Below are positions 4,740-52,332 of a stretch of 64,000 nt of DNA, one piece after another; the stretch's first letter is position 1, and the number at the start of each line of letters is the position of its first letter. Source of the DNA: a virus. Taxonomy: Duplodnaviria; Caudoviricetes. The stretch lies in IMG/VR virus record IMGVR_UViG_3300024229_000651; one strand, written 5' to 3'. A program made the position numbers and the translations under genes. The notes beneath the pieces were generated by a model. It did not search any database. It saw only the letters and a list, made by a program, of their open reading frames with translations, and was not told where the DNA came from.

Positions 4740-5407
4740 TGACTGTGTATACCTTCGGGTGTAGCTTTACTTACGGATGTGAAGGTAGCGACTACAATGC
4801 AACTAGTTGGGTTGAGAAACTTGCACAGAGATACCCAGATATAGAATTTGAAGATTTTGCTTATCCGGGTACATGTATAGAGTACAGTTTATATCATTAT
4901 GAAAAAGTTGCTAAAAGATTGCAGCCAGAAGATATAACTGTATTCCAGTTTACAATTCCATTTAGATACACAACATGGACTAACAGTGCAGTATTTGATG
5001 ACCCGCAGAACAGGCATAAAAAATCGTCGAACTATACAAAATTTGTACCAGATTTTAATATCAATTTAGAAAGATATATAGGTAATTTACGAAATTGGCA
5101 GTATCACGATAATCAGGAATTGCTAGATAAGGAATTTCATACAAAGTATTATACAAAATTTAACGAGGGTAAAGAGATGGCGGCATACAATGCTATCGCA
5201 AACTATCTTAGGAGTAAAACAACATTTACGTTTTTTCACACTGAGCCGCCAGCTGGCGTGGATGATAAAGACAGTGTTGTAATACAAAACATTTTAGGTA
5301 AACAGTTTAAAAAATATACGTGGGACTGGGGACGACATTTTGGTGACGAAGGCTGTAATTTTGTAGCCGACATTGTTGAAGAAAACATAGGATTAAAAAA
5401 CAAATGA
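4739..5407 (+). CDS. SGNH-like protein
   Basis: TFGCSFTYG, FAYPGTC, RHFGDEG; TAATG-coupled to the lysozyme gene. Confidence 0.55.
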   Translation: MTVYTFGCSFTYGCEGSDYNATSWVEKLAQRYPDIEFEDFAYPGTCIEYSLYHYEKVAKRLQPEDITVFQFTIPFRYTTWTNSAVFDDPQNRHKKSSNYTKFVPDFNINLERYIGNLRNWQYHDNQELLDKEFHTKYYTKFNEGKEMAAYNAIANYLRSKTTFTFFHTEPPAGVDDKDSVVIQNILGKQFKKYTWDWGRHFGDEGCNFVADIVEENIGLKNK

Positions 5408-6177
5408 AATTAAATGATTTAGGCAAAAAGTATCTAGAGTTAGAGAATGGTACAGGAAATTTTAATATAAAAGTTGGCGGTGAAACTATCAATACTGTTG
5501 CTGGGAGTGACCGTGCAAATAAATTTGTTGAGTCCTTGAAAAGAAAAGGCATCACGGCAATAGCAGAAGCGGACGAGCCCACAACTGATAAAAGTGCTAG
5601 AGCTAGATTAGATCTTAATCTACGTGATCGAGGACACAGCGTTGAAAAGCCTAAAAAAGGCAAAGGATCGTATGCACGTTCAGACAAGCATAAGAAGCCA
5701 GTGTCTGAAGGGCCACTAGTGGTTAGTAGATCATCCGACTTAATGGGGATGCTTGATGTATTACTAAAAGATTTCAAAAGCAAAAGTCCAAGCGATGAAG
5801 AAATGATCGCTTTAGTAAAGTCGCTTGGTTATAACATGACCAAAGATGGTGAGCGCACTACGTTAGTTAAAGAAGAAGATTGCGATATCGACGAGGGTAA
5901 CGGTAACATACGCAAAGGCTTAGCCGCAGTAGCGTTGATTGCTGGGTTGTGGAGTGTTAATGACCATGTAGCACAGAAGGCATATGATGCCAGTCCACAA
6001 CTACAAAAATTAACAGCATATCTAGAAGTAGCAAAAGACCATAACGATCAGCGTATGATTGATCAGTTAGAGCAACGTATTGGAAACCACAAGACCAGAA
6101 TCGATATTGGTAAGGGCGAAGTGATGGGTAACGATGGTCGCCCAGTGGACGTTAAATACGACAAGGAAGCTAATTAG
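5404..6177 (+). CDS. Modular protein with an internal ArfA-like motif; probable head-associated polyprotein
   Basis: RGHSVEKPKKGKGSYARSDKHKK at aa76-98; xxE sites IAE, VSE, VKEE, IDE; hydrophobic KGLAAVALIAGLW. Confidence 0.55.
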   Translation: MKLNDLGKKYLELENGTGNFNIKVGGETINTVAGSDRANKFVESLKRKGITAIAEADEPTTDKSARARLDLNLRDRGHSVEKPKKGKGSYARSDKHKKPVSEGPLVVSRSSDLMGMLDVLLKDFKSKSPSDEEMIALVKSLGYNMTKDGERTTLVKEEDCDIDEGNGNIRKGLAAVALIAGLWSVNDHVAQKAYDASPQLQKLTAYLEVAKDHNDQRMIDQLEQRIGNHKTRIDIGKGEVMGNDGRPVDVKYDKEAN

Positions 6178-7084: not shown

Positions 7085-7091
7085 ATAAATA
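7085..7091 (+). promoter_or_regulatory. Late-type promoter ATAAATA
   Basis: 6 nt before ATG 7098, no Shine-Dalgarno. Confidence 0.7.
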
Positions 7092-7097: not shown

Positions 7098-7613
7098 ATG
7101 AAAATATATGAAATTACAGAAGCAGAAGGCGATAACTGTGAAAAATGTCGTGGCCGAGGCAAGTTAGACTTACATAGTGAAGATCCACATAAGTGTAATG
7201 CGTGTGATGGCACTGGCAAACAAAAGTGGAAACCAGAACCAGTTAATTTCAGTAAGTTTAAGAAGGTTGGCGAGCAGGTTGAAGAAACCATTGACAACGA
7301 TGATGATTTTTTTGAAGCATACGGCTGGATAGACGGCGAATCACTCGAAGAAGCAGAATATCAAGGACGTAAAGTTAAACTAGGCAAGCCTATGCAAGGT
7401 GATGTTAAGAAGTTTAAAGTTTATGTTAAAGATCCTAAAACAGGTAATGTTAAAAAAGTTAACTTTGGACACGGCGGAAGCAGTGTTAAAGGTAAAGCAA
7501 TGAAGATTAGAAAATCTAATCCTAAGGCTCGTAAGAGTTTCAGAGCAAGACATAACTGTGATAATCCAGGGCCTCGCACTAAGGCACGTTATTGGTCATG
7601 TAGGAAGTGGTAG
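7098..7613 (+). CDS. Leader-tagged protein with DnaJ-type Zn finger and basic C-terminal module
   Basis: MKIYEITE leader; CEKCRGRG and CNACDGTG; after LEE a K/R-rich module KKFKVYVKDPKTG...KSFRARHNC...YWSCRKW. Confidence 0.7.
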   Translation: MKIYEITEAEGDNCEKCRGRGKLDLHSEDPHKCNACDGTGKQKWKPEPVNFSKFKKVGEQVEETIDNDDDFFEAYGWIDGESLEEAEYQGRKVKLGKPMQGDVKKFKVYVKDPKTGNVKKVNFGHGGSSVKGKAMKIRKSNPKARKSFRARHNCDNPGPRTKARYWSCRKW

Positions 7614-8486: not shown

Positions 8487-9050
8487 ATGAAAAAGATTGC
8501 TATAACAGGACATACACAGGGCATAGGCAAAGCAGTTGTAGATTTATGCAAACATGATTACGAAATTTTAGGATTTAGTAGAGCCACTGGGCATAATTTA
8601 CTGAAGCCTGGTGTTGTAGAAAGAATATTTGAAGAAGCAAAAGACTGTGACATTTTTATTAACAATGCTTTTTCCACAGATGCACAAATGAAGCTATTTG
8701 ATTTATTTTATAATCACTGGAAAGATGATGTGACAAAGTTTATCATTAATGTTAACAGTAAAAATAGATTTCGGGCAGGCGATGGTAGCTTCGGAGATAA
8801 TGGTTACGCCGCTGTAAAAGCACTATTGCATAAACAGTGGATAGACGTATTACATGAATCTGGGAGACTATGTAAAATATCAAACATATCTCCGGGATTT
8901 GTTGATACATATTTAATAAGTCATTTTTCTGTACCTGAGTGGCTCAAACAGCCGCCAGAAGAATGTGCAGAAACAATTATGTGGCTTATTAACCAGCCAG
9001 ATAATGTAGAAATAGGCGAAGTAAGTTATTGGAGACGTAAGGCACAATGA
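8487..9050 (+). CDS. Short-chain dehydrogenase/reductase, copy 2
   Basis: TGHTQGIG, FINNA, YAAVK, SPGFVDT; paralog of 7904. Confidence 0.85.
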   Translation: MKKIAITGHTQGIGKAVVDLCKHDYEILGFSRATGHNLLKPGVVERIFEEAKDCDIFINNAFSTDAQMKLFDLFYNHWKDDVTKFIINVNSKNRFRAGDGSFGDNGYAAVKALLHKQWIDVLHESGRLCKISNISPGFVDTYLISHFSVPEWLKQPPEECAETIMWLINQPDNVEIGEVSYWRRKAQ

Positions 9051-10666
9051 AAAAAGCTATAATATACCCAGGTCGGTTTCAACCAATGCTACCACATCAC
9101 GCAGAAGTATATCGCAGACTGCAAAGTACTTTTCCTGATGCTGATGTATTTGTTGCTACATCGGACAAAGTTGATCCTCCGAAAAGCCCTTTTCCATTTT
9201 CTGAGAAGGTACAAATCATGCAAGAAATGCATGGCATACCTAAAGACAAAATTTTAATTGCTCCCCAACCGTACCTAGTAGACAGTTTCAAAGACAAGTT
9301 TGACTCTGAAAATACAATGGTTATTTTTGCGGTGGGTGAAAAAGACAATGACCGTTTTCCTATGAACAATGTTGATCCTGCTACAGGATTAGATATGACT
9401 GTGCGCGGAGTTACCAGGCCAAAATACTATCAGATGATAAATACATTAAAGACTGATCCTCCCATGTCAATGAATGAGCGAGGTTATATTTACAATGCTC
9501 CAAGCATTGAAGGATTGGACGGAGAAGTAGCTAGTGCAAGTGCTTTTAGAGAAGCATTCACAAGTGTTGATAACGAACAGCAGCAACGTGCTATATTTGA
9601 AAAATATATGGGTACGTTTAACGAAAATATATTTGCACTGTTTAAGAATAAACTAATAGGTGATAAAATGAAAGAATCAATTGAAAAACTAAAATTTTTA
9701 GCAGGAATGTTAGAAAGTGCTCCTGTAGATTTTGATGATGAACCAGAAGCACGTTTATCCGATGAAGAAGATGATGACTTGAAGCCAGGCTTTGCTCAAA
9801 AAGGCATGATCAATCAGTTAGGTAAAATTGCTGACAGCGAAGATGCTAGTCAAGATGCTGATTCAATGAAAGTTAAAAAGTTTTCTAAGCTAACTACTGT
9901 TACAACAGATGATGGCGATGAAATAGAACTATCAGGAAGCGAAGCTAAAGCTCTTATTAAAATGTTTAACATGTTATCTGCACAAAGAGCTGGTGACGAG
10001 CAATCACCTAGAGAAAGATTCATCCGTGCTATCCAAACTACAAAAGGTTTAGACAGCATGACCGCTTTTGCTAAAGCAAAAGGACTTGTAGAAGAAACTG
10101 CTGAAGATCAGTATACATTAGATTTCGATGACATCCGTTCAGACTATGGCACTGAAGACAAAAGCAAACGTCAGATAATGGACGCTGTAGTACAGGAATT
10201 GGCTGAGTTGGCTAAATGGGTACAGGAAGCAGATTATCGTTGGAGTGAAAGTATGTATGACGAGTTCAATGCCGCAATTGAACCTATACTGGACCACGAA
10301 GATCTTATAAAACAATTAATGGACCCACAGCATGAAGTAATTTATCCTGAAATGGAAGAAGAGGACGAAGGAACGATTAAGTCAATAATAGATAGATTGG
10401 CAAAGAGATTGGCAGATTTTAGAGTAGGCTCTGTAAAAGAAACTGCTGTAGACGAAGAAGAGATCGATGAAGTTGCAGGACCTGAAGATTGCTGGCCCGG
10501 TCATAAGAAAGTTGGTACACAACCAGGAACAGGCAAGAACAAAGGCAAGCGTGTTAACAAATGCGTTAAAGAAGAAGAAGATGATGACGAAAGTGCATTA
10601 GAAGAAACTACTAATATCGCGATGGCAGCTGCATTAGAAGAGTTAAGAAAATTAGCAGGCATTTAA
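9047..10666 (+). CDS. Cytidyltransferase-like (HIGH superfamily) domain fused to an acidic modular region
   Basis: IIYPGRFQPMLPHH, ATSDK, PFPFSEK, SASAFR in aa1-207; then acidic modules, CWPGHKK...NKCVKE, C-terminal LRKLAGI. Confidence 0.7.
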   Translation: MKKAIIYPGRFQPMLPHHAEVYRRLQSTFPDADVFVATSDKVDPPKSPFPFSEKVQIMQEMHGIPKDKILIAPQPYLVDSFKDKFDSENTMVIFAVGEKDNDRFPMNNVDPATGLDMTVRGVTRPKYYQMINTLKTDPPMSMNERGYIYNAPSIEGLDGEVASASAFREAFTSVDNEQQQRAIFEKYMGTFNENIFALFKNKLIGDKMKESIEKLKFLAGMLESAPVDFDDEPEARLSDEEDDDLKPGFAQKGMINQLGKIADSEDASQDADSMKVKKFSKLTTVTTDDGDEIELSGSEAKALIKMFNMLSAQRAGDEQSPRERFIRAIQTTKGLDSMTAFAKAKGLVEETAEDQYTLDFDDIRSDYGTEDKSKRQIMDAVVQELAELAKWVQEADYRWSESMYDEFNAAIEPILDHEDLIKQLMDPQHEVIYPEMEEEDEGTIKSIIDRLAKRLADFRVGSVKETAVDEEEIDEVAGPEDCWPGHKKVGTQPGTGKNKGKRVNKCVKEEEDDDESALEETTNIAMAAALEELRKLAGI

Positions 10667-38860: not shown

Positions 38861-38869
38861 ATGTACTAT

Positions 38870-40615: not shown

Positions 40616-40616
40616 A

Positions 40617-41204
40617 CTAGTATTTATCTGCAAACTGGTGATTAGCAGCTGCATGCCTGGCTTCGTCATCTCTAACTGCTTTCACCATATCAAAAAGTTT
40701 AGCATCTTTATCAAGTCCATAATAATCGATAGCTAGTTGAGGTGCATCTACATTCCTAACTTGTCTATTTTCTATCATAGTTAAATATGTCGTATAGCTA
40801 AGTACTGCTTCTTCTTCAAAAAATGCAATCATTTTGTGTGCTGTTCGAGGGAAAAGTACAAACATTACAAAATAAAAATTCCAAAATATAAATTGTGCTA
40901 ATAAAATTAGAAATCTTTCAAATATATTAGGTTTTGCAATTTCTATGAAGAACATTAGATGCATGCGTTCATTCTCTGCTTCTGCAAGCAGTTCGCGAAT
41001 CATTGGGCCGTATCCGGTTTGCAGCTGGCGTAAACTTTTTAAATGTATCCACATGCCTGCAACCATCCCCGGTACGCCAGCAATAGTTTCCAATACTACT
41101 GCCCTATGTCCATAGCGTTTTGCAAAAAAGAGATCAGCAAAAAAACGGAAAAATTTTGTCATAAACATAGCCGTCATGTCCGACAGCTTGTGCTGAAATG
41201 TCAT
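40617..41204 (-). CDS. aox: Alternative (ubiquinol) oxidase
   Basis: Di-iron motifs LETIAGVPGMV, ENERMHL, FEEEAVLSY, DEARH. Confidence 0.93.
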   Translation of the reverse strand: MTFQHKLSDMTAMFMTKFFRFFADLFFAKRYGHRAVVLETIAGVPGMVAGMWIHLKSLRQLQTGYGPMIRELLAEAENERMHLMFFIEIAKPNIFERFLILLAQFIFWNFYFVMFVLFPRTAHKMIAFFEEEAVLSYTTYLTMIENRQVRNVDAPQLAIDYYGLDKDAKLFDMVKAVRDDEARHAAANHQFADKY

Positions 41205-41216
41205 GGGTTGAAGCCT

Positions 41217-41756
41217 CTAGTTGTTTATTCTGATATTCACGACGTCCCAATCAATGATACGCCATATATTACTAAGGTATTTAGCTTTGTCGTGCTGATA
41301 GTCTAATGCCCACGCATGCTCCCACCAATCAATGAGCATTGCTATGTCATTTTTAATTTGGTGGTTAACTATTGTTTTGATATCACCGGATAAACTCATG
41401 TACACCCATCCGCTGCCTTGAATCTTCATTGCTACTTCTTCAAACTGCTCTTTGAAAGTCGCAAAGTCGCCGTATTTGCTATCTATAAGCTCTTTACTTG
41501 CCCCTGCAGGGTTATTACTACTACTTGGTGTTTTTAGCTGTGGGAAGAATACGTTGTGTAAGAATGCACCTGCTTCCATGAACTGTGCATCTCCTTTGCC
41601 TTCATTATATTTTGTAACGTATGCTTTAGCAAGTTTGCCGTAGTGAAAATTGATTGTGTCTTCACTCATTACAGGATCCAAGTCACTCTTGCTGTAAGGT
41701 AACTTTTCTTGCACTAACACTTTTTTATCTTCTGTTAAAAAATCGTGTAGTTTCAT
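41217..41756 (-). CDS. sod: Fe/Mn superoxide dismutase with N-terminal leader
   Basis: LPY, FHYGK...AY, LHNVFF, GSGWV, IDWWEHAW; N-terminus MKLHDFLTE. Confidence 0.9.
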   Translation of the reverse strand: MKLHDFLTEDKKVLVQEKLPYSKSDLDPVMSEDTINFHYGKLAKAYVTKYNEGKGDAQFMEAGAFLHNVFFPQLKTPSSSNNPAGASKELIDSKYGDFATFKEQFEEVAMKIQGSGWVYMSLSGDIKTIVNHQIKNDIAMLIDWWEHAWALDYQHDKAKYLSNIWRIIDWDVVNIRINN

Positions 41757-41950
41757 TTTTTCTTACCGCCTTTCATATTAGCACACCAGTGATACATTTT
41801 ACCCTTTTCACCACTGTATTTTTTAGCTTTTGCCCGTAAACTACTTACCGAACCTTTGCAACTTGCGCCTGCTTTTTTGACTCTACCTGGTCTGCTCTTG
41901 CCTTTCTTCTTACCGTCAGCAAAGTTTTCTGTAATTTCAACTATTTTCAT
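41753..41950 (-). CDS. 65-aa leader-tagged basic peptide
   Basis: MKIVEITE then NFADGKKKGKSRPGRVKKAGASC...HWCANMKGGKKK. Confidence 0.8.
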   Translation of the reverse strand: MKIVEITENFADGKKKGKSRPGRVKKAGASCKGSVSSLRAKAKKYSGEKGKMYHWCANMKGGKKK

Positions 41951-44900
41951 GCGTCTGGCTTGAATTCAAACGCAAACTTTCCGCCAATGCGTGAACTGTA
42001 ATAATTCTTGGCGCCGTCTAAGCGAATTTTACCCCGGAAATTAGGTGGATACAACGCTTCCCATCCTGTTACTCTAGCATTGTCGCCTTGTTTACCCATC
42101 TTGCAGTATAACTGAACAATACTGGACTGGTTAAGGAATGCAATAGCACCTGCACTAAATTGAGGTTCTTCGTTAATCATTGCTGCTACTTTTTTAGCCA
42201 GTAACGCAATTAACGCATATCCTACATTGAATCCAGGTATGTCCTGTTTAGGTGTTCCATAGTTAAATAGTTCTTTCGCCGATTTGCTTAATCCATCGTA
42301 ATCAGTTTTTCCTGCTTTAACGTACTCCATGATTTCTAGTTCTAACTTTTTAGGTAATACACCCAACAGTTCTGCTAATCTAAATGGTCCGTCGATTGCA
42401 GTAGATTCTTGTACAATCTTAATTATTTTAACTGTGTATGCATGTGCTTTGACTAATTCTGGTGGTGCTTTATCGATAGCATCTGCAATGTTCTTAGCAC
42501 TTGCTTTTGCACCCTTGCCGCCTTTACTACTGATGCCAACTTCGGTTCCGTCTGGGCCAATGAAAACACTATCAACCAGTGCATAGTTCATTGCTTGCGG
42601 CCAGAATACTCCAAACGTAGACCACTCGGCTCCGCCCATTAAATCTTGTCTAGCATCTTCAGCTTGTCCGCCCACCATGCCGCTCATCAATGCAACTGGT
42701 CCCATGATTTCACCAAAGTAATCTCTTAGTGCCGGTAAGTTCTGTATTTGGCCTTCAAATTCAGGATGTTGCTGTGCTTGGATACTGTGCAAAGCATCTA
42801 ATAGCTGTTGCTGTATTGCGTGTCCCTGGCTGTTATTCGAGACAGTGTTTATTATGTCATCTACGCTTGTATGCTGATTTTCGTTTTTGATTAAGTGCTG
42901 TGGGTCGATACCAAGGTCTAATTTTAATGCGCCAGCTTTTTGTAATTTCCAACCAGTTGGAACTTGATTATTAGCCCATGCTCCCATCATATCTACACGC
43001 TTCTGCTTAAAATATCGACCCCAGTACACTGGCTTATCATTATTACTAGGATCTGTAAGTGTTGCAATACCGAAAGCTAGACTACCGCTGTTTGGAGTGT
43101 TAGTCCACTCAATTTGTGCATTGAGCTGTTGTTCTATATCTGATGCAAAACTTTCACGCTCTGGTGCATCATCGAACTGTGCACGATCCTGTGGGTAAAC
43201 TTCTACACTGCTGAACTCAAGCGTACTGTCCCCTTTCTTAAATTGGTCGCCCACCACTCGTCCCATTAAACCTTTTGCTTCCGCAAGTATGCTCTTAACG
43301 TGAGAGGAACTCCACTCGTTTAATTTTATTTGACTTTGAACTTCTTCAGGTAGTGCTTGAGAGAAATATTTAACTATACCTCTAGCACATGCATCGTCGC
43401 CAGCTTGCGCTCTAAGATCATGAAATGCATCTAGCATTTCAGGTATAGGCATTACTTGGTATGCAAGCATTTGCTTCTTTAAATCACATACTGGAAAATG
43501 GTCTGCCATTAACCCATTAATAATTTCTGCTCTATTAAAATCGTGCACACTCTCAAAATTCAATGCTCGCATCTCACGCTCGAATTCCAAATCGTCTAAT
43601 TTTTTACGAGTGGCTGCTTTTTTAGCATCAAATTTTGCTGGACCATACTTATCCTGGTCTTTATAAGTTTTCCTATTAGCCGATCTCTTAACTGTTTTCT
43701 TTTTACCAGGTAAACCTTTTGTCCATGCTGTGTCTGGTCTACGATTAGGCAATGAAACTTTTTCTACCCGTTGAATACCCAGTTCTTTACTTGTGGGATT
43801 GGCAGGATCTTTGTATTTTCCATCAGCTGATGCTACTTTCCTTTTGGCACCTAGTCTTGTTTGAGCAACAACTTTTTTATTTGTGCCATCCCTATATACG
43901 ACATTATACAGATATTCACCAGTGCGCAATTCTACTTTTTCATCTTCAGGTGAGGCTTTAGAAGTATCTCTGCGAGCTTGTTTTGCAATTGCTTCATCAA
44001 TTTTATTTTTATCAATTTTTTCTAAAATGGCTAGTTGTTCCAATATTGGCAACTTATCAAATTTGTCAAACGGTGTCATTTTACTTTCCTGTACATCAAA
44101 TTTTATATTAAATCTCTGGCTTAGTAATTTACGATGGTCAGTTTTTAAAAAGCTGTGCGGAACGCCGATTGGTTCGCTCTGATATGTAGTACCAGCTGGA
44201 GCAAAGCCATACTTCTTGACAAACGCATCAACAACAGGTTTATATTCCATCTTTTTGGCTTCAAATTCTGCAATATCCTGTTGTCTTTGTCTAATAGAGC
44301 CTTTGAGTCTTTCTACTTTTTCTGGTTCAGCAACTTTAAGACCTTGCTTTATACCGTCGATCAGTCCTTGTTCATGTTCGATATAACGAGTAGCCTCGTC
44401 CACTTCAAAGCGAGCACGTTTAACTTTGTCTAACTCGTCATCGCTAATCACTTTAAAATCTTGTTGACTGATTGTTGCATTACTATCGGGCTTGTTATCG
44501 CCGAATAGGTCACCGAACAGTGCACGATGCTTATCTGTGGGTATTGCTATAACGTGTCCTTTAGGTGCAGTAATAGTGTATGATGCTTCCGGTGCGTTAG
44601 CATCCTGCTTTTTCAACAAGCTGTTTACAGCCGAAGCCATCTTTTCTAGTTTGTTGTGATGATCTCCCGGGAAGTTTTTCACAAACTCTGACTGTTGTAG
44701 TTCAGTCCACAATGCTTTAGGCGTTAAGCTGAAGTCTTTTAACGCTTGTCTAAATGCTGCAATAGCCGCCGATTTAGGTTCAGCCCTATTAGCACCGCTT
44801 GCAACGTCACTGGCTAACATAGCAAAAGCTCGCACAAAGTATTTCTGTGCTTTAATCATTGTTCTACGCCAGTCTTCGTCATCGCCTTCGGCTTCGAACG

Positions 44901-47028
44901 GCATCTCTTGTTGTGGATTAGCGTTCTTTGCACTTTGTGCATCTGCTAATTCCATGTATGCATTGCTCAATGATTCAATAGCATCTGTATAATGTTTTTC
45001 ACTTGCAATACTTTGGAAAGCAGCTAACACTTTATCGTTAATGCTTTCTGGGTCAACCATTGTTTGAGCTCTTTTAACAACATCGCCGCTTACTTCGTCT
45101 TTGCCTGCAATCATTTTAAACAGTGCTTTGATGTAGTCCTTGCGATATGCTTCTTCATCATGCCCGGCTTGCATCACTGCGGCATAACGGATAACTGCTT
45201 TCATCACTTTGTCGCTCATAGTGTGATAATCGTCGCCACCTGCAACACGGAATTCAATAAGTTTATTTTGCTCTACGTTTTTAGCATCTTTAAAGTTGAT
45301 ACTGCTGAACTTGCCATTACTGATGCCGCCTAACAGTATGTCTTCGAGACCAGCAAGGCTCTTTTCATCCTTGATATCGTTTTGTAGATTTTTGATATAC
45401 TTTCGTACTGTTTCTTGTTGACTCTGTGTATAAGTGTTATGCTCTCTGCCAAACTGCTTTAACACATACTTGTCGCCTAACAGCACAGCCATTTTTAGCT
45501 TGTTAGTTTTAGCGTAGTCCGAATCCATCCAACTCATTGTGACATGCAAACCAGTTGAACTGTTTGTTTCCACATTGTTGTTGTTCATGTACTCAAACAA
45601 ACTCTTCATCTCTTTGAGCATTTCTGCTGGGTTGTCATATACAGGTGAAATAATCTCTGCTTTTGCACCTTCGCCTTCGATTGAGGTGTCATCTTCCACA
45701 CGCCAATGGTCATTGTCTACGCCTTGGCCACTGTGATATACGCCCGGACGTACATCGTTGCTCTTACTGTTGTTGCTGGCCCAATCCTCTAGCATACTAG
45801 CTACAGCATCAACACCGCCGCCTTCGCCGCCTTCGTTGTACAAGTAAATGTCCATTTCGCCTAATAGGCTCCACCAACTGCCGCCGTGTTCTCTGCGAAC
45901 CCAATCGTCCATGTCGTATTGATCCATTGCACGTTGCCAGGATTCGTCCCATGCTTCGCCATTGTCGCGGATCTGTTCCTCTAGCCACTCAATAAATTCG
46001 TCTTCTTTGTACATTTCAACATATTCACGAGGCCATGCTTCATCGTCCCAATTGCTGTACTCTTCCAGCTCGTCCTGCATGTCGTCGATTTCTAATCGCT
46101 CCAGTTTGTCTGCCTTGTACTCTTCCACTTCGTCCATGTCAACATGATCGTTTACAAACTCATCTATGTACGCTTCATCTTCTTTGCGTTCGTTGACTAG
46201 CTCTAGGACAACGTCACTCTCTATTTCGTATACAACTTCTTCTTGTAGCCATTCGCGGTATGCTTCTTCCACACTCTCCACTGCACGTGATCCTTCTTGA
46301 TCGTAAATCAAATCACCGACACGGTTCCAATACAGGTCGTCTAGCCAACTGGTGTCGTCCTCGTCACTGCCTTCGCCTAGGTTAGGCCACACAGTTTCCG
46401 CTTCAAAGCCGCACTGTATGTTCGCATTCAGTGCACCTTGTGCAAGCTCTTTGCTGTTGAAGTTGATTTCAAAAATAGGCTCACCTTGTTCGGTCATTTT
46501 AATTTTACGGGTGAGCTTTTTGATCTTTTTTTGCAAACGATCCCGCTTAAAATGAAAATTACTTGTGCTACTTTTAGATAATTTGTCTAACTTGCCTTCA
46601 GTAAACTCTGGATTAGCCACAAACACTTCTTCGTCGGGGTCGTCTATAACTGAATATTCTTTTGTTTTAGGGTTCTGCACTACTACTGCTTCAGGCTTTG
46701 TGCCTTTTCCGATAGGAGATTTTACTACACCTGCTGATTTTCCATCTTTATCAAAGTATTCCATATCTGTTTTTAGTTCGCCTGCTTTAGCATTAATAAA
46801 TTTTGGAGTCTCTTGATCATTTGCTTTAGGAACTTCTAGACCAGGCGTGGTAGTAGGGCTTCCTAAATCAGGTTTGGCTGCTGTTTTACTTGTAGTAGGT
46901 GATTTTGTAGATGCATTTGCTTTTGCACTTGATCCCATGGATTGTTGGGAAGTAGGTGTACTTGCCCCTGGCTTCATACCATACTCCATAAGTAAATGAT
47001 CTATAGTCCTAATATCTGTGAATTTCAT
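41947..47028 (-). CDS. 1693-aa multidomain protein containing a putative amidoligase (COOH-NH2 ligase) domain
   Basis: GFEAET, WRVEDDTSI, AEIISP, TNSSTGLHVTMS, KFSSINF, IEFRVAGG; many xxE module boundaries. Confidence 0.7.
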   Translation of the reverse strand: MKFTDIRTIDHLLMEYGMKPGASTPTSQQSMGSSAKANASTKSPTTSKTAAKPDLGSPTTTPGLEVPKANDQETPKFINAKAGELKTDMEYFDKDGKSAGVVKSPIGKGTKPEAVVVQNPKTKEYSVIDDPDEEVFVANPEFTEGKLDKLSKSSTSNFHFKRDRLQKKIKKLTRKIKMTEQGEPIFEINFNSKELAQGALNANIQCGFEAETVWPNLGEGSDEDDTSWLDDLYWNRVGDLIYDQEGSRAVESVEEAYREWLQEEVVYEIESDVVLELVNERKEDEAYIDEFVNDHVDMDEVEEYKADKLERLEIDDMQDELEEYSNWDDEAWPREYVEMYKEDEFIEWLEEQIRDNGEAWDESWQRAMDQYDMDDWVRREHGGSWWSLLGEMDIYLYNEGGEGGGVDAVASMLEDWASNNSKSNDVRPGVYHSGQGVDNDHWRVEDDTSIEGEGAKAEIISPVYDNPAEMLKEMKSLFEYMNNNNVETNSSTGLHVTMSWMDSDYAKTNKLKMAVLLGDKYVLKQFGREHNTYTQSQQETVRKYIKNLQNDIKDEKSLAGLEDILLGGISNGKFSSINFKDAKNVEQNKLIEFRVAGGDDYHTMSDKVMKAVIRYAAVMQAGHDEEAYRKDYIKALFKMIAGKDEVSGDVVKRAQTMVDPESINDKVLAAFQSIASEKHYTDAIESLSNAYMELADAQSAKNANPQQEMPFEAEGDDEDWRRTMIKAQKYFVRAFAMLASDVASGANRAEPKSAAIAAFRQALKDFSLTPKALWTELQQSEFVKNFPGDHHNKLEKMASAVNSLLKKQDANAPEASYTITAPKGHVIAIPTDKHRALFGDLFGDNKPDSNATISQQDFKVISDDELDKVKRARFEVDEATRYIEHEQGLIDGIKQGLKVAEPEKVERLKGSIRQRQQDIAEFEAKKMEYKPVVDAFVKKYGFAPAGTTYQSEPIGVPHSFLKTDHRKLLSQRFNIKFDVQESKMTPFDKFDKLPILEQLAILEKIDKNKIDEAIAKQARRDTSKASPEDEKVELRTGEYLYNVVYRDGTNKKVVAQTRLGAKRKVASADGKYKDPANPTSKELGIQRVEKVSLPNRRPDTAWTKGLPGKKKTVKRSANRKTYKDQDKYGPAKFDAKKAATRKKLDDLEFEREMRALNFESVHDFNRAEIINGLMADHFPVCDLKKQMLAYQVMPIPEMLDAFHDLRAQAGDDACARGIVKYFSQALPEEVQSQIKLNEWSSSHVKSILAEAKGLMGRVVGDQFKKGDSTLEFSSVEVYPQDRAQFDDAPERESFASDIEQQLNAQIEWTNTPNSGSLAFGIATLTDPSNNDKPVYWGRYFKQKRVDMMGAWANNQVPTGWKLQKAGALKLDLGIDPQHLIKNENQHTSVDDIINTVSNNSQGHAIQQQLLDALHSIQAQQHPEFEGQIQNLPALRDYFGEIMGPVALMSGMVGGQAEDARQDLMGGAEWSTFGVFWPQAMNYALVDSVFIGPDGTEVGISSKGGKGAKASAKNIADAIDKAPPELVKAHAYTVKIIKIVQESTAIDGPFRLAELLGVLPKKLELEIMEYVKAGKTDYDGLSKSAKELFNYGTPKQDIPGFNVGYALIALLAKKVAAMINEEPQFSAGAIAFLNQSSIVQLYCKMGKQGDNARVTGWEALYPPNFRGKIRLDGAKNYYSSRIGGKFAFEFKPDA

Positions 47029-47029
47029 C

Positions 47030-47314
47030 TTATCGCCTATTTAAAGATTGTACTCTTCTGCTCTGAGGATTCAATCGTTTTGTTCGTCTAGCCTTTCTAG
47101 CCATTCTACCACCCATCTTTGCTTTTGTACGCTTGAGTGTTAGACGCTTTTTCATATTAATAGGCTTAGAGCATTGGCTAGGATTACTAACTACTCGGCC
47201 TTTTCGTCTACCAGATGTGCAACGAACTGCACGTTTTACAGTTTTCCCGGATCGACGCCATACCATACGGGTCTCCAGTAAACTATCTTCCTGTAACAGT
47301 TCGTCTAAACGCAA
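47030..47314 (-). CDS. Arg/Lys-rich leader-tagged protein
   Basis: TTG start gives MRLDELLQEDSLLE then TRMVWRRSG...RC...QC...RR. Confidence 0.7.
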   Translation of the reverse strand: MRLDELLQEDSLLETRMVWRRSGKTVKRAVRCTSGRRKGRVVSNPSQCSKPINMKKRLTLKRTKAKMGGRMARKARRTKRLNPQSRRVQSLNRR

Positions 47315-47315
47315 T

Positions 47316-47564
47316 TTATATACCGCCAAACATATTAAGTAATAAACCAACTAATATTGCTACCATAGTAGTAAACGTAGTGCCTACTATAGCCACAAGC
47401 CAGTTCTCAATTTTATTTAGGCGCACTTTTGTATCTTGCTTGAACTCTCTAACTTCTGTTGTGATACTTTCAATACGCAACATATCTGCAATAATGTGTG
47501 CTTCTAAATTATTACTCTCAGAATACTGAGTTTGTTGCTTTCGTTGTTGGTCGTAATCGTTCAT
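47316..47564 (-). CDS. Small protein with coiled coil and C-terminal TM helix
   Basis: LEAHIIADMLRIESI...KIENWLVAIVGTTFTTMVAILVGLLL. Confidence 0.7.
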   Translation of the reverse strand: MNDYDQQRKQQTQYSESNNLEAHIIADMLRIESITTEVREFKQDTKVRLNKIENWLVAIVGTTFTTMVAILVGLLLNMFGGI

Positions 47565-47963
47565 TTATAATAAGTCCTGTTTTGTAAATTCCATATTAAT
47601 AGAATTCTTAGTGTCGATGACACCCGAGTTTAAAACAATATCGTGCAACTCATCTATCAAGGTTTGTACAGTGTGTGCACCAGGCATTTCTGTAGCAAAT
47701 TTAAAGATGAATCCCGAACCAGTTATAGAAGAAGCACCATAGTTCTCTAGTAAATTTTGTCCTGTGCCGTTTAAATAAACTGGGTTGTTCATAACCGTAG
47801 GCATAGCCCGTAATCCAATCACTTGAACAACACTTTCAAAATCTTTTTGACTACTATCAGTGTAACTACCGGTAACACGAATATTCAAATTAGTATACAA
47901 TGTGAAAAATTCAATATTGCCTGTTAGCACTTCCAGCGAGCCCATTGCTCCGCGTCTAATCAT
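47565..47963 (-). CDS. Probable structural protein
   Basis: CAGGAG RBS; late promoter at 47982-47988. Confidence 0.6.
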   Translation of the reverse strand: MIRRGAMGSLEVLTGNIEFFTLYTNLNIRVTGSYTDSSQKDFESVVQVIGLRAMPTVMNNPVYLNGTGQNLLENYGASSITGSGFIFKFATEMPGAHTVQTLIDELHDIVLNSGVIDTKNSINMEFTKQDLL

Positions 47964-48009
47964 GTTTATCTCCTGTACGTGTATTTATCACGATACCGAT
48001 TATACAGCC

Positions 48010-48038
48010 AAAAAAAATCCCCAACTAAGTTGAGGATC
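48010..48038 (-). terminator. Intrinsic terminator
   Basis: ATCCTCAAC-TTA-GTTGGGGAT plus T run on the minus strand. Confidence 0.75.
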
Positions 48039-48060
48039 TTTAATTTATAAATTTTTAAAT

Positions 48061-48303
48061 TTATACGTTGTCGAAAGTTGCTACTACAGTTACACCTGTT
48101 ACTGCTGGTGTTGGGCCGCCTTGTACAACAAGGTGACTGCCGTCTGTTGTGCCTTCAACTGCTGCGATTGTGCCGCCTTCAACCATAATTTCTGCGCATG
48201 CAGCTTCTACGGATACTGTTGCTGTTGCTACAGATACGATAAAAGTCTTAGGGCCTAAACCGTTGGACTGACGTACTGCTGCATTTGGATTAGCTTGTGC
48301 CAT
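48061..48303 (-). CDS. Small Ala/Val/Thr-rich probable capsid decoration protein
   Basis: Monocistronic: late promoter 48357-48363, TAGGAG RBS, terminator. Confidence 0.55.
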   Translation of the reverse strand: MAQANPNAAVRQSNGLGPKTFIVSVATATVSVEAACAEIMVEGGTIAAVEGTTDGSHLVVQGGPTPAVTGVTVVATFDNV

Positions 48304-48396
48304 TTTATATCTCCTAAACTATTTTCATGCTTAATTAAATAAGCTCTGGTTACTGTTATTTATGCAAAAGAAAAGATTTAGTGTTGTTATAGATTT

Positions 48397-48900
48397 TTAC
48401 TTTCTAGGCTTACGAATATTGCTTTTCATAAGTTTATCTGCAACATTAACAAAATCTTTGCTAATATCTGCGCCTAATTCAGCTGAATCAACGTTGAATA
48501 CATCCCTAGCAACTTGTTTAATCTTGTCTTTTGCTGCTTTGTACTTGGCGCCGGGTGTTGTTTTCTTATCCTGATAATACTGATTACCCCATTTCTTTCC
48601 TGATTTATCGCTAACTCTGTCAACTGTAGTGCTCGTAGTTGGCTCTGGTCTGGTCATAGGAGTTCGTTTTATTTTTTGGGCAGGTTCTTCCTTTGTATCA
48701 GGGGATTGCTTTTGTTTTCTGCGTTCGATGTCCTGAGCCATGCCAATAGCGTCTAATGCACTTATACCTTTATTAGACACTATACGTTTAGCTCTGGATA
48801 TAACATTATTACTTAACGAAGATCCGTGCTGTGCTTGTATTTGAGCTATCTGGTCAACGGTTAAATTTTCGTCTTCTAGAATTATATCGCTGATTTTCAT
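48397..48900 (-). CDS. Leader-tagged hypothetical protein
   Basis: MKISDIILEDE N-terminus. Confidence 0.7.
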   Translation of the reverse strand: MKISDIILEDENLTVDQIAQIQAQHGSSLSNNVISRAKRIVSNKGISALDAIGMAQDIERRKQKQSPDTKEEPAQKIKRTPMTRPEPTTSTTVDRVSDKSGKKWGNQYYQDKKTTPGAKYKAAKDKIKQVARDVFNVDSAELGADISKDFVNVADKLMKSNIRKPRK

Positions 48901-49679
48901 TACTGCTTTTTCCTTCCGCTAGCCCAGTATCCGGCAATTGCCCCTATACCTGCGCCAGTAGTGCTAGATATTTTGTTTTTAGACACTTTAGGTACAACTT
49001 TACTGCCTACGTATGCTCCAGCTGCTGTTGCTGCAGCTCTTTTTAACTTACTTGGCTCATTGCTAACGGGCGTATCTTTGTAGGCTCGTTCTCTTTTCAT
49101 AGAAATCAAATGATTGAATATTTCTGTAGTTTGTGCTTTTACTGAACGCAAAGACTGTAGAATTTTTGCAACCACATATTGCTTCTGGCTGTATTTTAAA
49201 TTATCCCAGTCTACAACTAAGCGTCTTAGTTGTTTGTATAATGCGTTCTTGATACTTAACTGAGATTCAAGTCTAATTAGAAATGCAGACATTTCACTTT
49301 TTGTAATATCTGTGGTTGCTACTGTACGCATCATTCTGTAATGTCTGCGATTATCAAAACTTAAACTAGCAAGCGACTTTTCAACACTGCCTTTAAACCT
49401 TAAACTTTTGTAGTCTGGGTTCTTAATTGCAAACCCCAACATATATAAATCTGTTGCTGCTGTTCTATAAGCAGCATAAGGTCCGTATTGTGATGTTTTT
49501 TGTGCATAGGCTTTTGCATAATCTCGTTGATCGCCATCTTGCGAGAACATTAATACTGCTAGTGTTTCTAGAAAAAATACGTCTGCAATATTTTGCGCAG
49601 ACATACGGCGAAATCCATCTGTGTTTCTATACAGTCTGCTTTCGCATAAATCCTCAGAATTAACCAGTAAGAGATCCAT
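48900..49679 (-). CDS. Hypothetical protein with C-terminal Gly/Ala-zipper
   Basis: LCESRLYR N-terminus; AAATAAGAYVG and TGAGIGAIAGYW. Confidence 0.65.
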   Translation of the reverse strand: MDLLLVNSEDLCESRLYRNTDGFRRMSAQNIADVFFLETLAVLMFSQDGDQRDYAKAYAQKTSQYGPYAAYRTAATDLYMLGFAIKNPDYKSLRFKGSVEKSLASLSFDNRRHYRMMRTVATTDITKSEMSAFLIRLESQLSIKNALYKQLRRLVVDWDNLKYSQKQYVVAKILQSLRSVKAQTTEIFNHLISMKRERAYKDTPVSNEPSKLKRAAATAAGAYVGSKVVPKVSKNKISSTTGAGIGAIAGYWASGRKKQ

Positions 49680-50974
49680 TATGCTCCAGGCTTCCCGGAG
49701 CCGAAATTCAATCTGCTAAATTCTAATCTATCAACTAACTTTAACGCATTGCCAATCCTGTCAACTGCTACGAAACCTTCCTCGCCAGTAACTTCAAATC
49801 CGTCACCTGTTTCTACAAAAGTTCCTATTTGCCTGATTTGTTCTAACTTTTTAACTATACGAATTTTTGCTTCGATCAACTTTAAATATAAATCGTATAC
49901 TGCAACAATTCCAGGAATGTGCTCTTTGATAAACTTAACACCGCCTACCATTTTTTCAGTTTTAGCATCTTTAGTTTTTTGCATAGAAACTTTGTCTATT
50001 TCTTTCTTCATAAAGTTAACATATTTTTCAACAAAGCCTTGCGCAAATTTAGTAGGCTCATCGAAGTGGCCTTGACGCACTTGATTATTTGCATGAGCTT
50101 TTAGCTGTTGCAAAAAGTCTTTACCGATCAAGTCGTTGCCCTTCTCTAGCCAAGAAAATGTTTCAGAATCAACACTCTTTAGATATGATGCTGCATCTTG
50201 TATTGCTTGCATTGTAGCAGAGCTTTCCTGTGCAGTCATTGTAACAGTGCCGCTAAGATCTTTAATTATCGCATCTCTGTGCCAAACACCATTGGTCTGT
50301 CCTAACACACTGCTGTCGAAGCCAAATTTTGCAGTTGTATCAGCTAGTGTTGGGCCGCCTACGTATTCTGTATGCCAAACTATACCAAAGCCTGCTGAAA
50401 GAATTTGTTTTCCTAAATCACTATCAGCTGGAACAGCATATGTGATAGTGTTGGGCTTGAATACAATATGTTCTGTATTGTCTATAACAACTTTACGTAA
50501 ATCTTCTTGTCCTGCGAATAGCATGTCGCCTTGCGCTACAGTGTCCCAATTTAATCCTTGCAAATATTTTAATGCTAATTTTAATTTAGTACGCAATCCG
50601 CTCGAATCTTTACCCTTGGGATCTGCATGATTAACATCAATATCTTTGTTTGTAAAATTTATTTTAGGTGTTTGCGCAAAAACGCCCTTAGTTCCTACAA
50701 AAAACTTACCTGTTGCAGGATCTTTACCTGCTATAATAGCAGGAGCACCATCCCATTTTGTTGTCATACTGATCGGTGCTTTTGAATTACCTTCCAGCAT
50801 ATCGTGTAAACTGTACAAATATTCTACTGCTTCTTTAGCGCCGGCATACCCTTTATTAAATATGTTGTCTTCTAGGTGCTCAAGGTGCGTGTTTTTACCA
50901 TCCTTGCTTTCTGTAATTACAGATTCAGATAATATGTTAACAACTTTAGGCTTTGATATTTCTATAAACTTCAT
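49679..50974 (-). CDS. KxDG ligase/nucleotidyltransferase-like protein with leader
   Basis: KNTHLEHLED, TTKWDGAPAI, QGDMLF, FKPNTITY, EGFVAVD; N-terminus MKFIEI...LSESVITE. Confidence 0.6.
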   Translation of the reverse strand: MKFIEISKPKVVNILSESVITESKDGKNTHLEHLEDNIFNKGYAGAKEAVEYLYSLHDMLEGNSKAPISMTTKWDGAPAIIAGKDPATGKFFVGTKGVFAQTPKINFTNKDIDVNHADPKGKDSSGLRTKLKLALKYLQGLNWDTVAQGDMLFAGQEDLRKVVIDNTEHIVFKPNTITYAVPADSDLGKQILSAGFGIVWHTEYVGGPTLADTTAKFGFDSSVLGQTNGVWHRDAIIKDLSGTVTMTAQESSATMQAIQDAASYLKSVDSETFSWLEKGNDLIGKDFLQQLKAHANNQVRQGHFDEPTKFAQGFVEKYVNFMKKEIDKVSMQKTKDAKTEKMVGGVKFIKEHIPGIVAVYDLYLKLIEAKIRIVKKLEQIRQIGTFVETGDGFEVTGEEGFVAVDRIGNALKLVDRLEFSRLNFGSGKPGA

Positions 50975-52332
50975 TATATTCCCGCAAGTAACTTCATTTC
51001 ATAAATCTTAATTTCTTTTACTGGTATAAGCATTACATGACTAGTCACGCTCTCTGATACAAGAATTTCAAACCCTACATCTTCCCACGTAAACCCTGCG
51101 GCCTCTAATACTTTGCACATATGCTGATATGCTTCTTGTCGCATACTTCTTGCAAGTTTAGTGAAATGCGTATATGCCTGGGGGTCACTTTTGGCTAAGC
51201 CGCCTTTCTTCATTACTGGAGCAGCTGCTTGTATAAATTTATCTGCATCGTATCCTTTGGTTTTTAAATTACTTAATTTACCAACAAGTGCTTTTGCAGC
51301 TGCTAAATCACCTTGCAATGTCTTGGATTGTAGCATTTTAATTTCTGATGCAGTGGGACCTGGAACTGGCTTAGGGCCTTTAGGCTGTGCTGGTGCATCC
51401 GCAGCTGGTTGGTCAGTTGCTGGTTGGTCAGTTGCTGGTGCATCTGCGGCAGGTTGTTCTCCACCTTTACCTAACGCAGACATAGCTCGGCCGATACCAG
51501 CTCCCACTGTTGCGCCAGCTTTCTTTATAGTGCCAGCATCTGGATCTGATCTTGTTGCTGTAGCAAGTGGTCCGCCGATAGCATCTGCGCCTGCTTTTTT
51601 AATTTTGTCAATACCTTGTCTAATTTTTCCGCCTAGACTATCATCCGGTGCTTGTATAACACCTGTTTTAGGATCAGGTGTTCCAGCGGCTTTATCCAAC
51701 GATTTAGACATTCTACTGTTAGGATTTTCAGCACTCGCATTTGGATCAACAACACCCTTTTGATCTGACGGCATCCAACCTTGATCATTTCGTACAAAAT
51801 GCTTACCTTGAGGCGTCTTAACAATAGCGCCAGGTATCTTACTTGGGTCTTTAGACGCTGGAGCGGCTTGTGCAGGTGCTGCTTGTGGAGCGGCTTGTGC
51901 TGGTGCTGCTTGTGCTGGTGCTGCTTGTGCAGGTGCTGCTTGTGCAGGTGCTGCTTGTGCAGGTGCTGCTTGTGCAGGTGCTGCTTGTGCAGGTGCTGCT
52001 TGCCCTGCCTTCTTAGCGGCTATTGCTGCCTTCTTTGCCTGTATGGCTGCTGATCCGCCGGCTAGTGCATCCTGTGGTTGGGCTGTACTGTTTCCTTTTA
52101 CTTGGGATCTTAAGGCCGGGTCTGTTAAAATATTGCCTTTCTTGCCGGCGGCTGTTTGTTTTACAGGAGCAACTTTAGGTTGCTTAGGCTGTGCCGGTGC
52201 TGCTTTTTTCTTTTTATTAAAAATAGCATCGTAATTGCTACTAAAGTTTTTCTGTGCTTTTGCAGACTGATCTCCACGTAATGCGCCTGGTTTTCCGGGG
52301 ACGGGTGCTTCTTCTATTTGTTCAAGTCTCAT
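50974..52332 (-). CDS. Low-complexity leader-tagged protein with QAAPA repeats
   Basis: MRLEQIEE; ten QAAP(A) units; C-terminal MKLLAGI. Confidence 0.7.
   Translation of the reverse strand: MRLEQIEEAPVPGKPGALRGDQSAKAQKNFSSNYDAIFNKKKKAAPAQPKQPKVAPVKQTAAGKKGNILTDPALRSQVKGNSTAQPQDALAGGSAAIQAKKAAIAAKKAGQAAPAQAAPAQAAPAQAAPAQAAPAQAAPAQAAPAQAAPQAAPAQAAPASKDPSKIPGAIVKTPQGKHFVRNDQGWMPSDQKGVVDPNASAENPNSRMSKSLDKAAGTPDPKTGVIQAPDDSLGGKIRQGIDKIKKAGADAIGGPLATATRSDPDAGTIKKAGATVGAGIGRAMSALGKGGEQPAADAPATDQPATDQPAADAPAQPKGPKPVPGPTASEIKMLQSKTLQGDLAAAKALVGKLSNLKTKGYDADKFIQAAAPVMKKGGLAKSDPQAYTHFTKLARSMRQEAYQHMCKVLEAAGFTWEDVGFEILVSESVTSHVMLIPVKEIKIYEMKLLAGI
51856..52002 (-). repeat. 15-bp coding tandem repeat, ten units (one 12 bp)
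   Basis: (TGCAGGTGCTGCTTG)n on the plus strand, encoding QAAPA. Confidence 0.95.

Follow-up and report, generated by a model that had tools for sequence, protein, structure and literature searches.

The window analysed here is a stretch of 64,000 nucleotides, bases 153549-217548 of the 339,794-bp virus record IMGVR_UViG_3300024229_000651 of IMG/VR, which is of marine origin and has a G+C content of 38%. It carries a set of otherwise unrelated genes whose products begin with a common short leader, resembling the capsid targeting sequence that internal proteins of phage T4 bear. Most of them are packed in a 16-kb block and encode, among others, a superoxide dismutase (SOD), a giant protein with an amidoligase domain and a protein of the family DUF6267. 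The genome is that of a T4-core jumbo phage, with the Pseudomonas jumbo phage PA5oct and the Vibrio phage 2.275.O as closest cultured relatives; identity with PA5oct amounts to 70% for the capsid protein, 61% for the protease and 53% for the portal.

About 390 genes were called in the whole genome by a simple codon-score method. Gene counts are therefore approximate, some starts (40615, 47028) were misplaced, and the gene at 47030-47314, which has a TTG start, was not among the called genes. An IMG/VR scan with the DUF6267 protein yielded 80 related loci with 69-92% identity, denoted by L-numbers where they have to be told apart. Coordinates are those of the window unless the genome or a comparison locus is named, leader genes are designated by their start position, and a slash marks a predicted cleavage site.

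A common leader on unrelated proteins

The eleven strong leader-like N-termini reported in a preliminary description of the window were all found in the sequence. They are MKIYEITE (7098), MRIAEVFLLE (36695), MKIHDIIGE (38860), MKISDIITE (40615), MKLHDFLTE (41756), MKIVEITE (41950), MKFTDIRTIDHLLME (47028), RLDELLQE (47314, with a TTG start), MKISDIILE (48900), MKFIEISKPKVVNILSESVITE (50974) and MRLEQIEE (52332). Conservation is greatest at four positions, which hold a hydrophobic residue (3 and 6), I or L (7) and E (9), and 11 of the 12 strong leaders end in [IL]xE. In total 12-13 genes of the genome are tagged in this way: the block 36348-52332 contains ten of them and the head module one, another starts at 7098, and the gene at 5404 is a weak candidate.

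The expression ^M[KR][ILF].[DE][ILFV] matched 9 of the 390 called starts. When N-terminal residues were shuffled within positions 2000 times, it matched 0.6 starts on average and never more than 4; of 2307 internal methionine positions it matched 2. Genes 40615, 47028 and 52332 (the last with Gln at position 5) joined the set after correction of the start or with a looser pattern, and 47314 was the fourth addition. A position matrix was then built solely from the leaders of related metagenome loci, with the window excluded, and run over the whole genome. The claimed genes were the top 12 of all candidate starts (scores 6.3-11.5), with a clear gap to an internal TTG at 5.7, the start at 38010 at 4.0 and noise below 4. 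The codons used in the leaders vary (ATA/ATC/ATT, AAA/AAG, CGA/AGA/CGT) and the residue class is constant, which indicates that the signal is the peptide and not an RNA or recombination motif.

As the preliminary description had it, nrdA, nrdB, thyX, apt and aox carry no leader. Its weaker members fared less well: 10668 (MNEMRKLMET) and 10945 (MMNEIDRIKY) were not scored as leaders, and 5404 has the core MKLNDL (matrix score 6.7) but no [IL]xE before residues 53-55, which leaves it a doubtful member. Nor does the interval 5404-52332 hold together as one system. The region from 11 to 36 kb consists of unrelated genes, and since leader genes are confined to 36348-52332, 7098 and the head module, the 47-kb span is too wide; what remains as actual units is the block 36348-52588 and, by itself, the gene at 7098.

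The leader is also common in the relatives, where the 80 loci contain 227 leader-type starts in about 20 unrelated families, some of them in the variant form M[LQ]I[KRN]DII.E. An [IL]xE site at residues 7-25 was present in 80% of the 118 unique leaders from relatives and in 21% of other genes. Families are tagged nearly all-or-none: the giant protein in 14/14 cases, DUF6267 in 73/80 and three families of 150-200 residues in 10/10, 7/7 and 5/5, as opposed to the helicase (0/63), an 88-residue protein (0/73), a 259-residue protein (0/70) and SGNH proteins (0/67), which are never tagged. Gene maps of the relatives have a constant order, with slots in which differing tagged cargo genes substitute for each other. 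Among the tagged cargo absent from the window are an ADP-ribosyltransferase of the type ART-PolyVal (E 8e-13) and a 1050-residue protein with a Zeta-toxin-like kinase domain (E 4e-14) together with DUF6934.

Proteins encoded by the tagged genes

The SOD gene (41217-41756, minus strand) encodes 179 residues with the leader MKLHDFLTE/D. Its earlier identification as a superoxide dismutase was borne out, both domains of the Fe/Mn enzymes being present (Pfam Sod_Fe_C, E 3e-22; Sod_Fe_N, E 5e-9), as well as the four metal ligands in the motifs FHYGK, H and D..WEHA. The alignment to the Fe enzyme 8avm (E 8e-28) begins at residue 17 of the phage protein, which faces residue 5 of the enzyme. Of four SODs in the relatives, three fit the leader pattern, and the N-terminus of the remaining one, MRLENLTE, is a near-variant of it. 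The PA5oct homologue gp223, annotated as detected by ESI-MS/MS (tandem mass spectrometry with electrospray ionisation), starts MNDSIKKYISIAE/A, a 13-residue extension ending in IAE/A; the SOD of the Vibrio phage has no extension. A complex prediction for the protease and the SOD scored 0.02, which is evidence neither way. The SOD gene is adjoined by the untagged alternative oxidase gene (40617-41204; Pfam AOX, E 3e-67), and both products handle oxygen stress.

The 431-residue DUF6267 protein (49679-50974, minus strand; Pfam E 6e-99, match from residue 28) has a leader of 22 residues, MKFIEISKPKVVNILSE/SVITE/S. In 45 orthologues the leader measures 17-23 residues and always reads M[KR]F.E[IL]...[IL]xE/[ASG], followed by an invariant KNTHLEHLED. 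Homologues from the cyanophages P-HM2, S-CAM4 and S-RIM2 begin right at this invariant K/NxHLEHLED, with no tag, and that of Methylophilales phage Melnitz has a 10-residue leader. Residues 1-32 were modelled as disordered (predicted local distance difference test, pLDDT, <35). Judged from these alignments, the tag has been added to the proteins: cellular SODs begin past it, as do the DUF6267 model of Pfam and the homologues from cyanophages, and its length varies while the domain start is invariant.

The DUF6267 protein had been described as ligase-like on account of a KxDG motif. The motif itself stands, K73-W-D75-G76 being invariant in 30 sequences including those of cyanophages and Melnitz, but a ligase fold could not be established. 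The structural model is mediocre (pLDDT 65.5), its top Foldseek match, T4 RNA ligase 1, is not significant (E 0.17), and a wide structural search returned helical matches only, mainly helical bundles. Nothing significant came from comparing its profile with those of two PA5oct proteins, the ligase gp217 and gp256; gp256 has a KIDG motif at the place matching KWDG, a match that is suggestive only. The gene lies just downstream of a gp41-type helicase in Kyanoviridae cyanophages, in Melnitz and in the phage studied here (comparison loci L004:5980-7227, L005:5995-7215, L087:5043-6248 and L088:5037-5933), and the family could represent a nucleotidyltransferase or ligase that has escaped recognition in marine T4-like phages. 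The cytidylyltransferase of S-RIM2 (L088:5935-7092) begins MKKFSAFLTE/A, its 650-residue homologue in Melnitz (L004:7613-9565) begins MKKFSEIIE/A, and a basic 130-residue neighbour of the latter (L004:7224-7616) begins MKKFSELTSELIE/R, all of them very near the T4 sequence. The homologues of P-HM2 and S-CAM4 and the window gene 9047-10666 have no T4-like leader.

The largest tagged protein, of 1693 residues (41947-47028, minus strand; leader MKFTDIRTIDHLLME/Y), contains the amidoligase proposed earlier, as an Amidoligase_2 domain at residues 438-585 (24.3 bits against a Pfam cut-off of 22). This is the sole recognised domain, and a search of the PDB gave no sequence match. The L-x-E/Y site at residue 15 is kept in 25/25 orthologues of 1215-2200 residues and 29-71% identity, among which the C-terminal half is hypervariable. 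It had been supposed that internal xxE sites cut such proteins into separate effectors. The giant protein has 22 [IL]xE sites, compared with 16.8 +/- 3.6 in shuffled sequences, and conservation throughout the 25 orthologues extends, beyond the leader site, to only three, of which two fall within the amidoligase domain. With sites neither enriched nor conserved at domain borders the polyprotein idea was rejected; no peptidase domain for self-processing was found in the protein, nor any sign of its being cut into pieces.

Between the giant gene and the SOD gene lies a gene for 65 residues (41753-41950, minus strand), made up of the leader MKIVEITE/N and a 57-residue basic Cys/His module. This module is 88-91% identical to the C-termini of two longer tagged proteins of the relatives, an ART-PolyVal protein (L073:20000-20980) and a 216-residue protein (L046:20206-20853). 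Leader, exchangeable effector and fixed tail thus look, by sequence comparison, like a cassette, in which the 57-residue module may be a DNA-binding or ejection tail common to the exchangeable effectors. The module reads ...SRPGRVKKAGASC.GSV..LRAKAKKYSGE.GKMYHWCANMK, and its 216-residue tagged bearer in the relatives has a GHHRYD motif.

The remaining genes of the block also lie on the minus strand. The first is that of the 88-residue protein without leader (52322-52588; phrog_11854 'virion structural protein', E 6e-14), a homologue of PA5oct gp259, which comes after the DnaB-type helicase here, in PA5oct and in Vibrio phage 2.275.O. It is followed by a 452-residue protein of unassigned function (50974-52332; leader MRLEQIEE/A), which had no Pfam, PHROG or phage-database match; sequence searches with this protein and with the 1693-residue one found nothing. 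In the relatives 40/50 members of the 452-residue family bear the leader and keep the I-x-E/A site (MRINEINE/A, MRFQEINE/A). The tagged protein encoded outside the block (7098-7613, plus strand; 171 residues, leader MKIYEITE/A), which has a CxxCxGxG zinc-finger-like motif, clusters with this family, and L016:8614-9987, in the slot ahead of the DUF6267 gene, begins MRIFQVTE/AEGDKCEICRGRG.

The 259-residue protein (48900-49679), conserved and without leader, is a constant neighbour of the DUF6267 gene, with the same position in L016, L046, L060 and L073. The 167-residue orphan beside it (48397-48900; leader MKISDIILE/D) occupies a slot that holds at least six unrelated tagged families of 150-200 residues in the relatives. 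Further along are a 132-residue protein without leader (47565-47963), matching PA5oct gp250, itself detected by ESI-MS/MS (blastp E 6e-26), and a very basic 94-residue protein with a TTG start (47030-47314; leader (M)RLDELLQE/DSLLE/T). The latter is 70% identical to L032:11988-12281 (MKLLELGEEATIIE/ARMVWRK), and in the relatives, too, its slot is immediately ahead of the giant gene.

On the other side of the SOD gene, small tagged proteins of 131 residues (40220-40615; leader MKISDIITE/T, then TTSGAIATS) and 55 residues (38693-38860, basic; leader MKIHDIIGE/T, then ITAGAVATS) are encoded. A motif T[ST][AS]GA[IV]AT directly past the leader is found in both and in L060:20532-21014 and L092:8460-8636. 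It resembles the predicted mature N-terminus of the capsid protein, HLQE/SATAGASQAGNIATLNKVMLPLIRR, over a stretch too short for statistics, and these small proteins may mimic or derive from the N-terminal arm of the capsid protein. The G+C content drops to 0.327 between 38001 and 40000, from about 0.38-0.40 on either side; this stretch, which may be a recent insertion, covers an orphan gene of 439 residues (38870-40189) and small neighbours within the block.

The block ends with a 437-residue protein (36697-38010), which has a weak leader-like start (MKLTTF...YLKE/N, matrix score 4.0) and matches PA5oct gp247, a 'virion structural protein' detected by ESI-MS/MS (blastp E 3e-17), as well as phrog_14154 'virion structural protein' (E 9e-7), and with a tagged 115-residue protein (36348-36695; leader MRIAEVFLLE/S). 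The gene of the latter succeeds the gp247 homologue just as PA5oct gp246 (MKIKDILVE/S, 104 residues, ESI-MS/MS) succeeds gp247, and at the equivalent place the Vibrio phage has MRYKDLCE/G. The link to gp246 is by position only, because BLAST found no similarity between the two proteins. The doubtful 257-residue orphan at 5404-6177 (plus strand) has IAE at residues 53-55 as its first [IL]xE and a hydrophobic stretch, GLAAVALIAGLWSV, likely a membrane helix; a search for relatives found none. The ArfA-like peptide proposed earlier corresponds to a Pfam match on this weakest of the leader candidates and was not supported, with 22.6 bits against a curated cut-off of 25.5.

Prohead protease, virion proteins and possible late expression

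A protease related to T4 gp21 was sought and found in the same genome, in a head module located outside the window (genome 269805-276408, minus strand). The module has the gene order of T4: portal, a 66-residue protein, an acidic 258-residue protein, Peptidase_S77, a scaffold-like protein and the major capsid protein, the last being of the gp23 type (genome 269805-270947; PF07068, E 2e-81). The gp21-type Peptidase_S77 (genome 272084-272713; PF03420, E 6e-25, 85.5 bits where the cut-off is 27) was aligned to the T4 gp21 structure 5JBL with an E value of 6e-14, and the ELDHP and SSRG motifs are both there. The 66-residue protein (genome 274499-274699), encoded between portal and protease, is the sole tagged protein outside the window; its gene occupies the position of T4 gene 67 and is homologous to PA5oct gp333, which likewise sits between portal and protease. 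For the capsid protein, too, maturation is predicted at an LxE site, HLQE/S here and FLVE/N in PA5oct.

An SGNH-like gene (genome 273683-274498) is inserted in the module between the genes of the 66-residue and the acidic core protein. SGNH/GDSL-like starts (..ACGDSFTEG.., ..GCSFT..) occur on many paralogues in the window, at 1216-5407 (four genes), 21021-21959 and 54032-54838, and the family is plentiful in the relatives, with 67 members.

In the published virion proteome of PA5oct (Lood et al. 2020, PMC7318152), 93 of the 461 gene products were found by ESI-MS/MS. We scanned the whole PA5oct genome with the leader expression, looked up each match and took the detection status from the ESI-MS/MS notes in the RefSeq annotation. 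Ten annotated genes were tagged, including gp213, in which the leader Met is preceded by the annotated start at a distance of five codons. Seven of the ten were detected in virions, namely gp333 (MKINDIITE/G), gp309, gp279, gp254, gp246 (MKIKDILVE), gp105 and gp104, compared with 86 of the 451 others (odds ratio ~10, Fisher p ~8e-4). The block of the window is syntenic with PA5oct gp259-gp245, a segment downstream of the DnaB-type helicase in which almost all products are marked as detected by mass spectrometry.

The heptamer ATAAATA is the core of the T4 late promoter. It is found before 52588, 48303, 47963, 40615, 38860, 38010 and 7098, and in the case of the 88-residue gene at the head of the block it occupies 52613-52619, 25 nt upstream. 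The copies at 7085-7091 (plus), 38867-38873, 40621-40627, 27028-27034, 19950-19956 and 21005-21011 (all minus) and 56736-56742 (plus) are among those that end exactly 6-7 nt short of an ATG. Genome-wide, 21 genes have this arrangement, in which no Shine-Dalgarno sequence intervenes, and the spacing is that of 21 out of 66 copies located within 60 nt upstream of a co-oriented start. If ATAAATA is a late promoter in this phage, those mRNAs would be leaderless or nearly so.

Interpretation and comparison with known systems

We consider, with a probability of roughly 0.7, that the leader M[KR][ILF]x[DE][ILV]...[IL]xE is this lineage's version of the T4 capsid targeting sequence, and the tag probably directs incorporation into the prohead and is removed by the protease. 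This reading is built on the tag, its enrichment, its clustering and its conservation across relatives, on the protease gene and on the link between tag and virion proteins in PA5oct. The parallel with T4 propeptides and their gp21-like protease, drawn already in the preliminary description, is well supported indirectly, by the protease gene, the [IL]xE ends, the gene-67 position and the PA5oct enrichment.

By analogy with T4, the tagged proteins would probably be made late, as the late-promoter-like motif suggests. By their first six or so residues they would attach to the scaffolding core while the prohead is being assembled, and the gp21-type serine protease, whose gene lies in the head module at a distance of 120 kb, would cut after the Glu of [IL]xE. 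The mature proteins would remain in the head and exit with the DNA at infection. The payload of this phage would then consist of the Fe/Mn SOD, the 1693-residue amidoligase protein, the KWDG protein of the family DUF6267, orphan proteins and several small and strongly basic proteins that are reminiscent of the internal proteins of T4. Related phages have this tag on the ADP-ribosyltransferase, the Zeta-toxin-like kinase and other cargo, swapped at fixed gene slots.

Several points weigh against this reading. Three of the ten tagged PA5oct genes were undetected, namely a gene of the direct terminal repeat region without an [IL]xE site and those of a 64-residue and a 123-residue protein. Moreover, the sample analysed was a 'purified phage lysate' in which ribonucleotide reductase, thymidylate synthase and FtsH were also detected (PMC7318152), so that some detections are contaminants. 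The 66-residue protein of the head module has no canonical [IL]xE site. DUF6267 belongs to a replication-gene neighbourhood and its cyanophage homologues are untagged, which is odd for a packaged protein. Since the leader is one residue shorter than that of T4, the match of functional positions depends on the alignment. The number of ATAAATA motifs in the window is at chance (35 against 30.6 +/- 5.4), only their placement being striking, and late expression is for that reason only suggested. Finally, this phage is known from its DNA alone, and cleavage and ejection are predictions.

It is also conceivable, though unlikely, that the tag targets the prohead core and most tagged proteins are assembly or scaffold parts which are degraded and expelled, like T4 gp67, gp68 and gp22. 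T4 core proteins are indeed cut to fragments that exit the head (PMC5694885); one tagged gene is in the gene-67 position, several tagged proteins are small orphans without a recognisable enzyme domain, and possibly some of them are disposable core components and not delivered cargo. The intact tagged enzymes, which are the SOD with its metal ligands, the ART-PolyVal protein, the Zeta-type kinase and the amidoligase protein, make no sense as disposable scaffold and cannot be explained in this way. Furthermore, tagged PA5oct proteins were detected in mature virions, and [IL]xE is not enriched inside the giant protein.

Much less probable is a role of the N-terminus as a recognition tag for a radical-SAM maturase or for a Clp-type protease or its adaptor, although ClpS- and ClpX-like proteins are encoded near the SOD genes of PA5oct and of the Vibrio phage. 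Both PA5oct and Vibrio phage 2.275.O have the tag family and neither has a Radical_SAM (PF04055) match (0/2 at E <= 0.001, with 14/14 control genomes matching), which here excludes the radical-SAM variant. Most of the N-termini that cleavage is predicted to create (S, A, G, D, T, Y) do not belong to the ClpS N-degrons, and the tag ends in the site that the prohead protease prefers and accompanies virion presence in PA5oct.

That the resemblance reflects a preference for AT-rich, weakly structured codons in the opening part of genes, aiding expression, or common ancestry of 5' ends, with no function of the peptide, is hardly credible even in a genome of 38% G+C with many genes starting MK. The within-position shuffle keeps the start-composition bias and yet gave 0.6 matches for 9 observed, and synonymous codons vary while the residue class is kept, which excludes a start-composition effect. 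Families are all-or-none for the tag, and the acidic residue 5, the hydrophobic residue 6 and the [IL]xE further on persist among orthologues of 29-80% identity even where the leader changes in length.

Returning to the targeting sequence, a broader and more tentative reading, to which we give somewhat less than even odds, is that PA5oct-like jumbo phages, together with their abundant marine relatives, generally mark the proteins they eject with this leader, so that the contents of the loaded head could be read off a genome. These phages would preload enzymes for infection, here the SOD, a ligase-like KWDG enzyme and a giant amidoligase and in sister phages an ADP-ribosyltransferase and a Zeta-type kinase, in the form of cassettes of leader, effector and basic tail that are swapped between phages at fixed slots.

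If the tag works as in T4, proteins injected ahead of phage gene expression would become predictable from sequence, in a lineage spanning the phage-therapy candidate PA5oct and widespread marine viruses. Such proteins would be the first tools of the phage for counter-defence and host takeover. Among tailed phages whose head is of the T4 type, the packaging of a superoxide dismutase would be new, as would effector cassettes exchangeable between a fixed leader and a fixed tail and the acquisition of the tag by DUF6267, a conserved protein of the replication neighbourhood. The tag could also be used for packaging foreign proteins in the heads of jumbo phages, a purpose for which the T4 sequence is already employed in T4. 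The PA5oct paper (PMC7318152) makes no mention of a common leader, of propeptides or of SOD, and in the open-access literature we found no description of capsid targeting sequences in jumbo phages of the PA5oct/RaK2 type or in marine T4-like phages, nor a paper connecting PA5oct or RaK2 with propeptides.

PA5oct is one of the closest known systems. It has the leader, the same succession of helicase, 88-residue protein and block of virion proteins, and a SOD detected in virions; most cargo families, on the other hand, are not common to both phages. The variable C-terminal half of the giant protein fits the pattern of the polyvalent proteins (Iyer et al. 2017, PMC5512222), large multidomain proteins for which packaging and injection are predicted. 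The ART-PolyVal domain is found on a tagged protein in the relatives and not in the window, and the giant protein differs in having one recognised domain, amidoligase, which is absent from the list in PMC5512222. The phiKZ-like jumbo phages (SPN3US, phiKZ, 201phi2-1; PMC5694885) also have a homologous prohead protease that cuts after Glu and process many internal head proteins. Their propeptides are mostly longer than 100 residues, with the motif [SAG]-x-E and no short common leader, whereas the phage studied here follows the T4 pattern.

In T4 the internal proteins IPI, IPII, IPIII and Alt bear a capsid targeting sequence that is removed by gp21 (Mullaney and Black 1996, via PMC9026906, PMC3012670 and PMC5694885), and the classic case of an enzyme that is packaged and then ejected is the ADP-ribosyltransferase Alt (PMC5512222, PMC5694885). 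According to the T4 record, ipII and ipIII start MKTYQEFIAE/A and ipI starts MKTFKEFTSTTTPVSTITE/A. The gp21 rule is [IL]xE, as in the Alt sites ITE-6 and LTE-619 (PMC5694885), and residues 4 and 7 of the sequence act in targeting and 8 and 10 in processing (PMC9026906). In a short-peptide alignment with a shift of one residue, T4 positions 4, 7, 8 and 10 meet the conserved positions 3, 6, 7 and 9 of MKISDIITE.

Both phages have a short propeptide (a predicted one of 8-22 residues here, 10-19 in T4) on unrelated proteins, some of them basic, with an MK start, two hydrophobic residues three apart and an [IL]-x-E end, and both have a homologous Peptidase_S77 in a head module of identical gene order. 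The long leader of the DUF6267 protein, ending in ...SVITE/S, parallels the 19-residue ipI leader. Hypervariable cargo stands behind a conserved tag in each case, and the ADP-ribosyltransferase of the relatives corresponds to Alt. The consensus differs (MKTYQEFIAE in T4, MK[ILF]x[DE][ILV]xxE here), and so does the number of tagged genes, about four in T4 and 12-13 here. The cargo in this 340-kb relative of PA5oct, which lies outside the Straboviridae, includes large enzymes and has no sequence similarity to T4 internal proteins, and it is known from genes alone. As far as can be read from the genomes, the T4 principle would extend to a jumbo-phage lineage with a cultured model, with a homologous protease and the same logic, a shifted consensus, a cassette-like architecture and a payload that is much larger and partly enzymatic.

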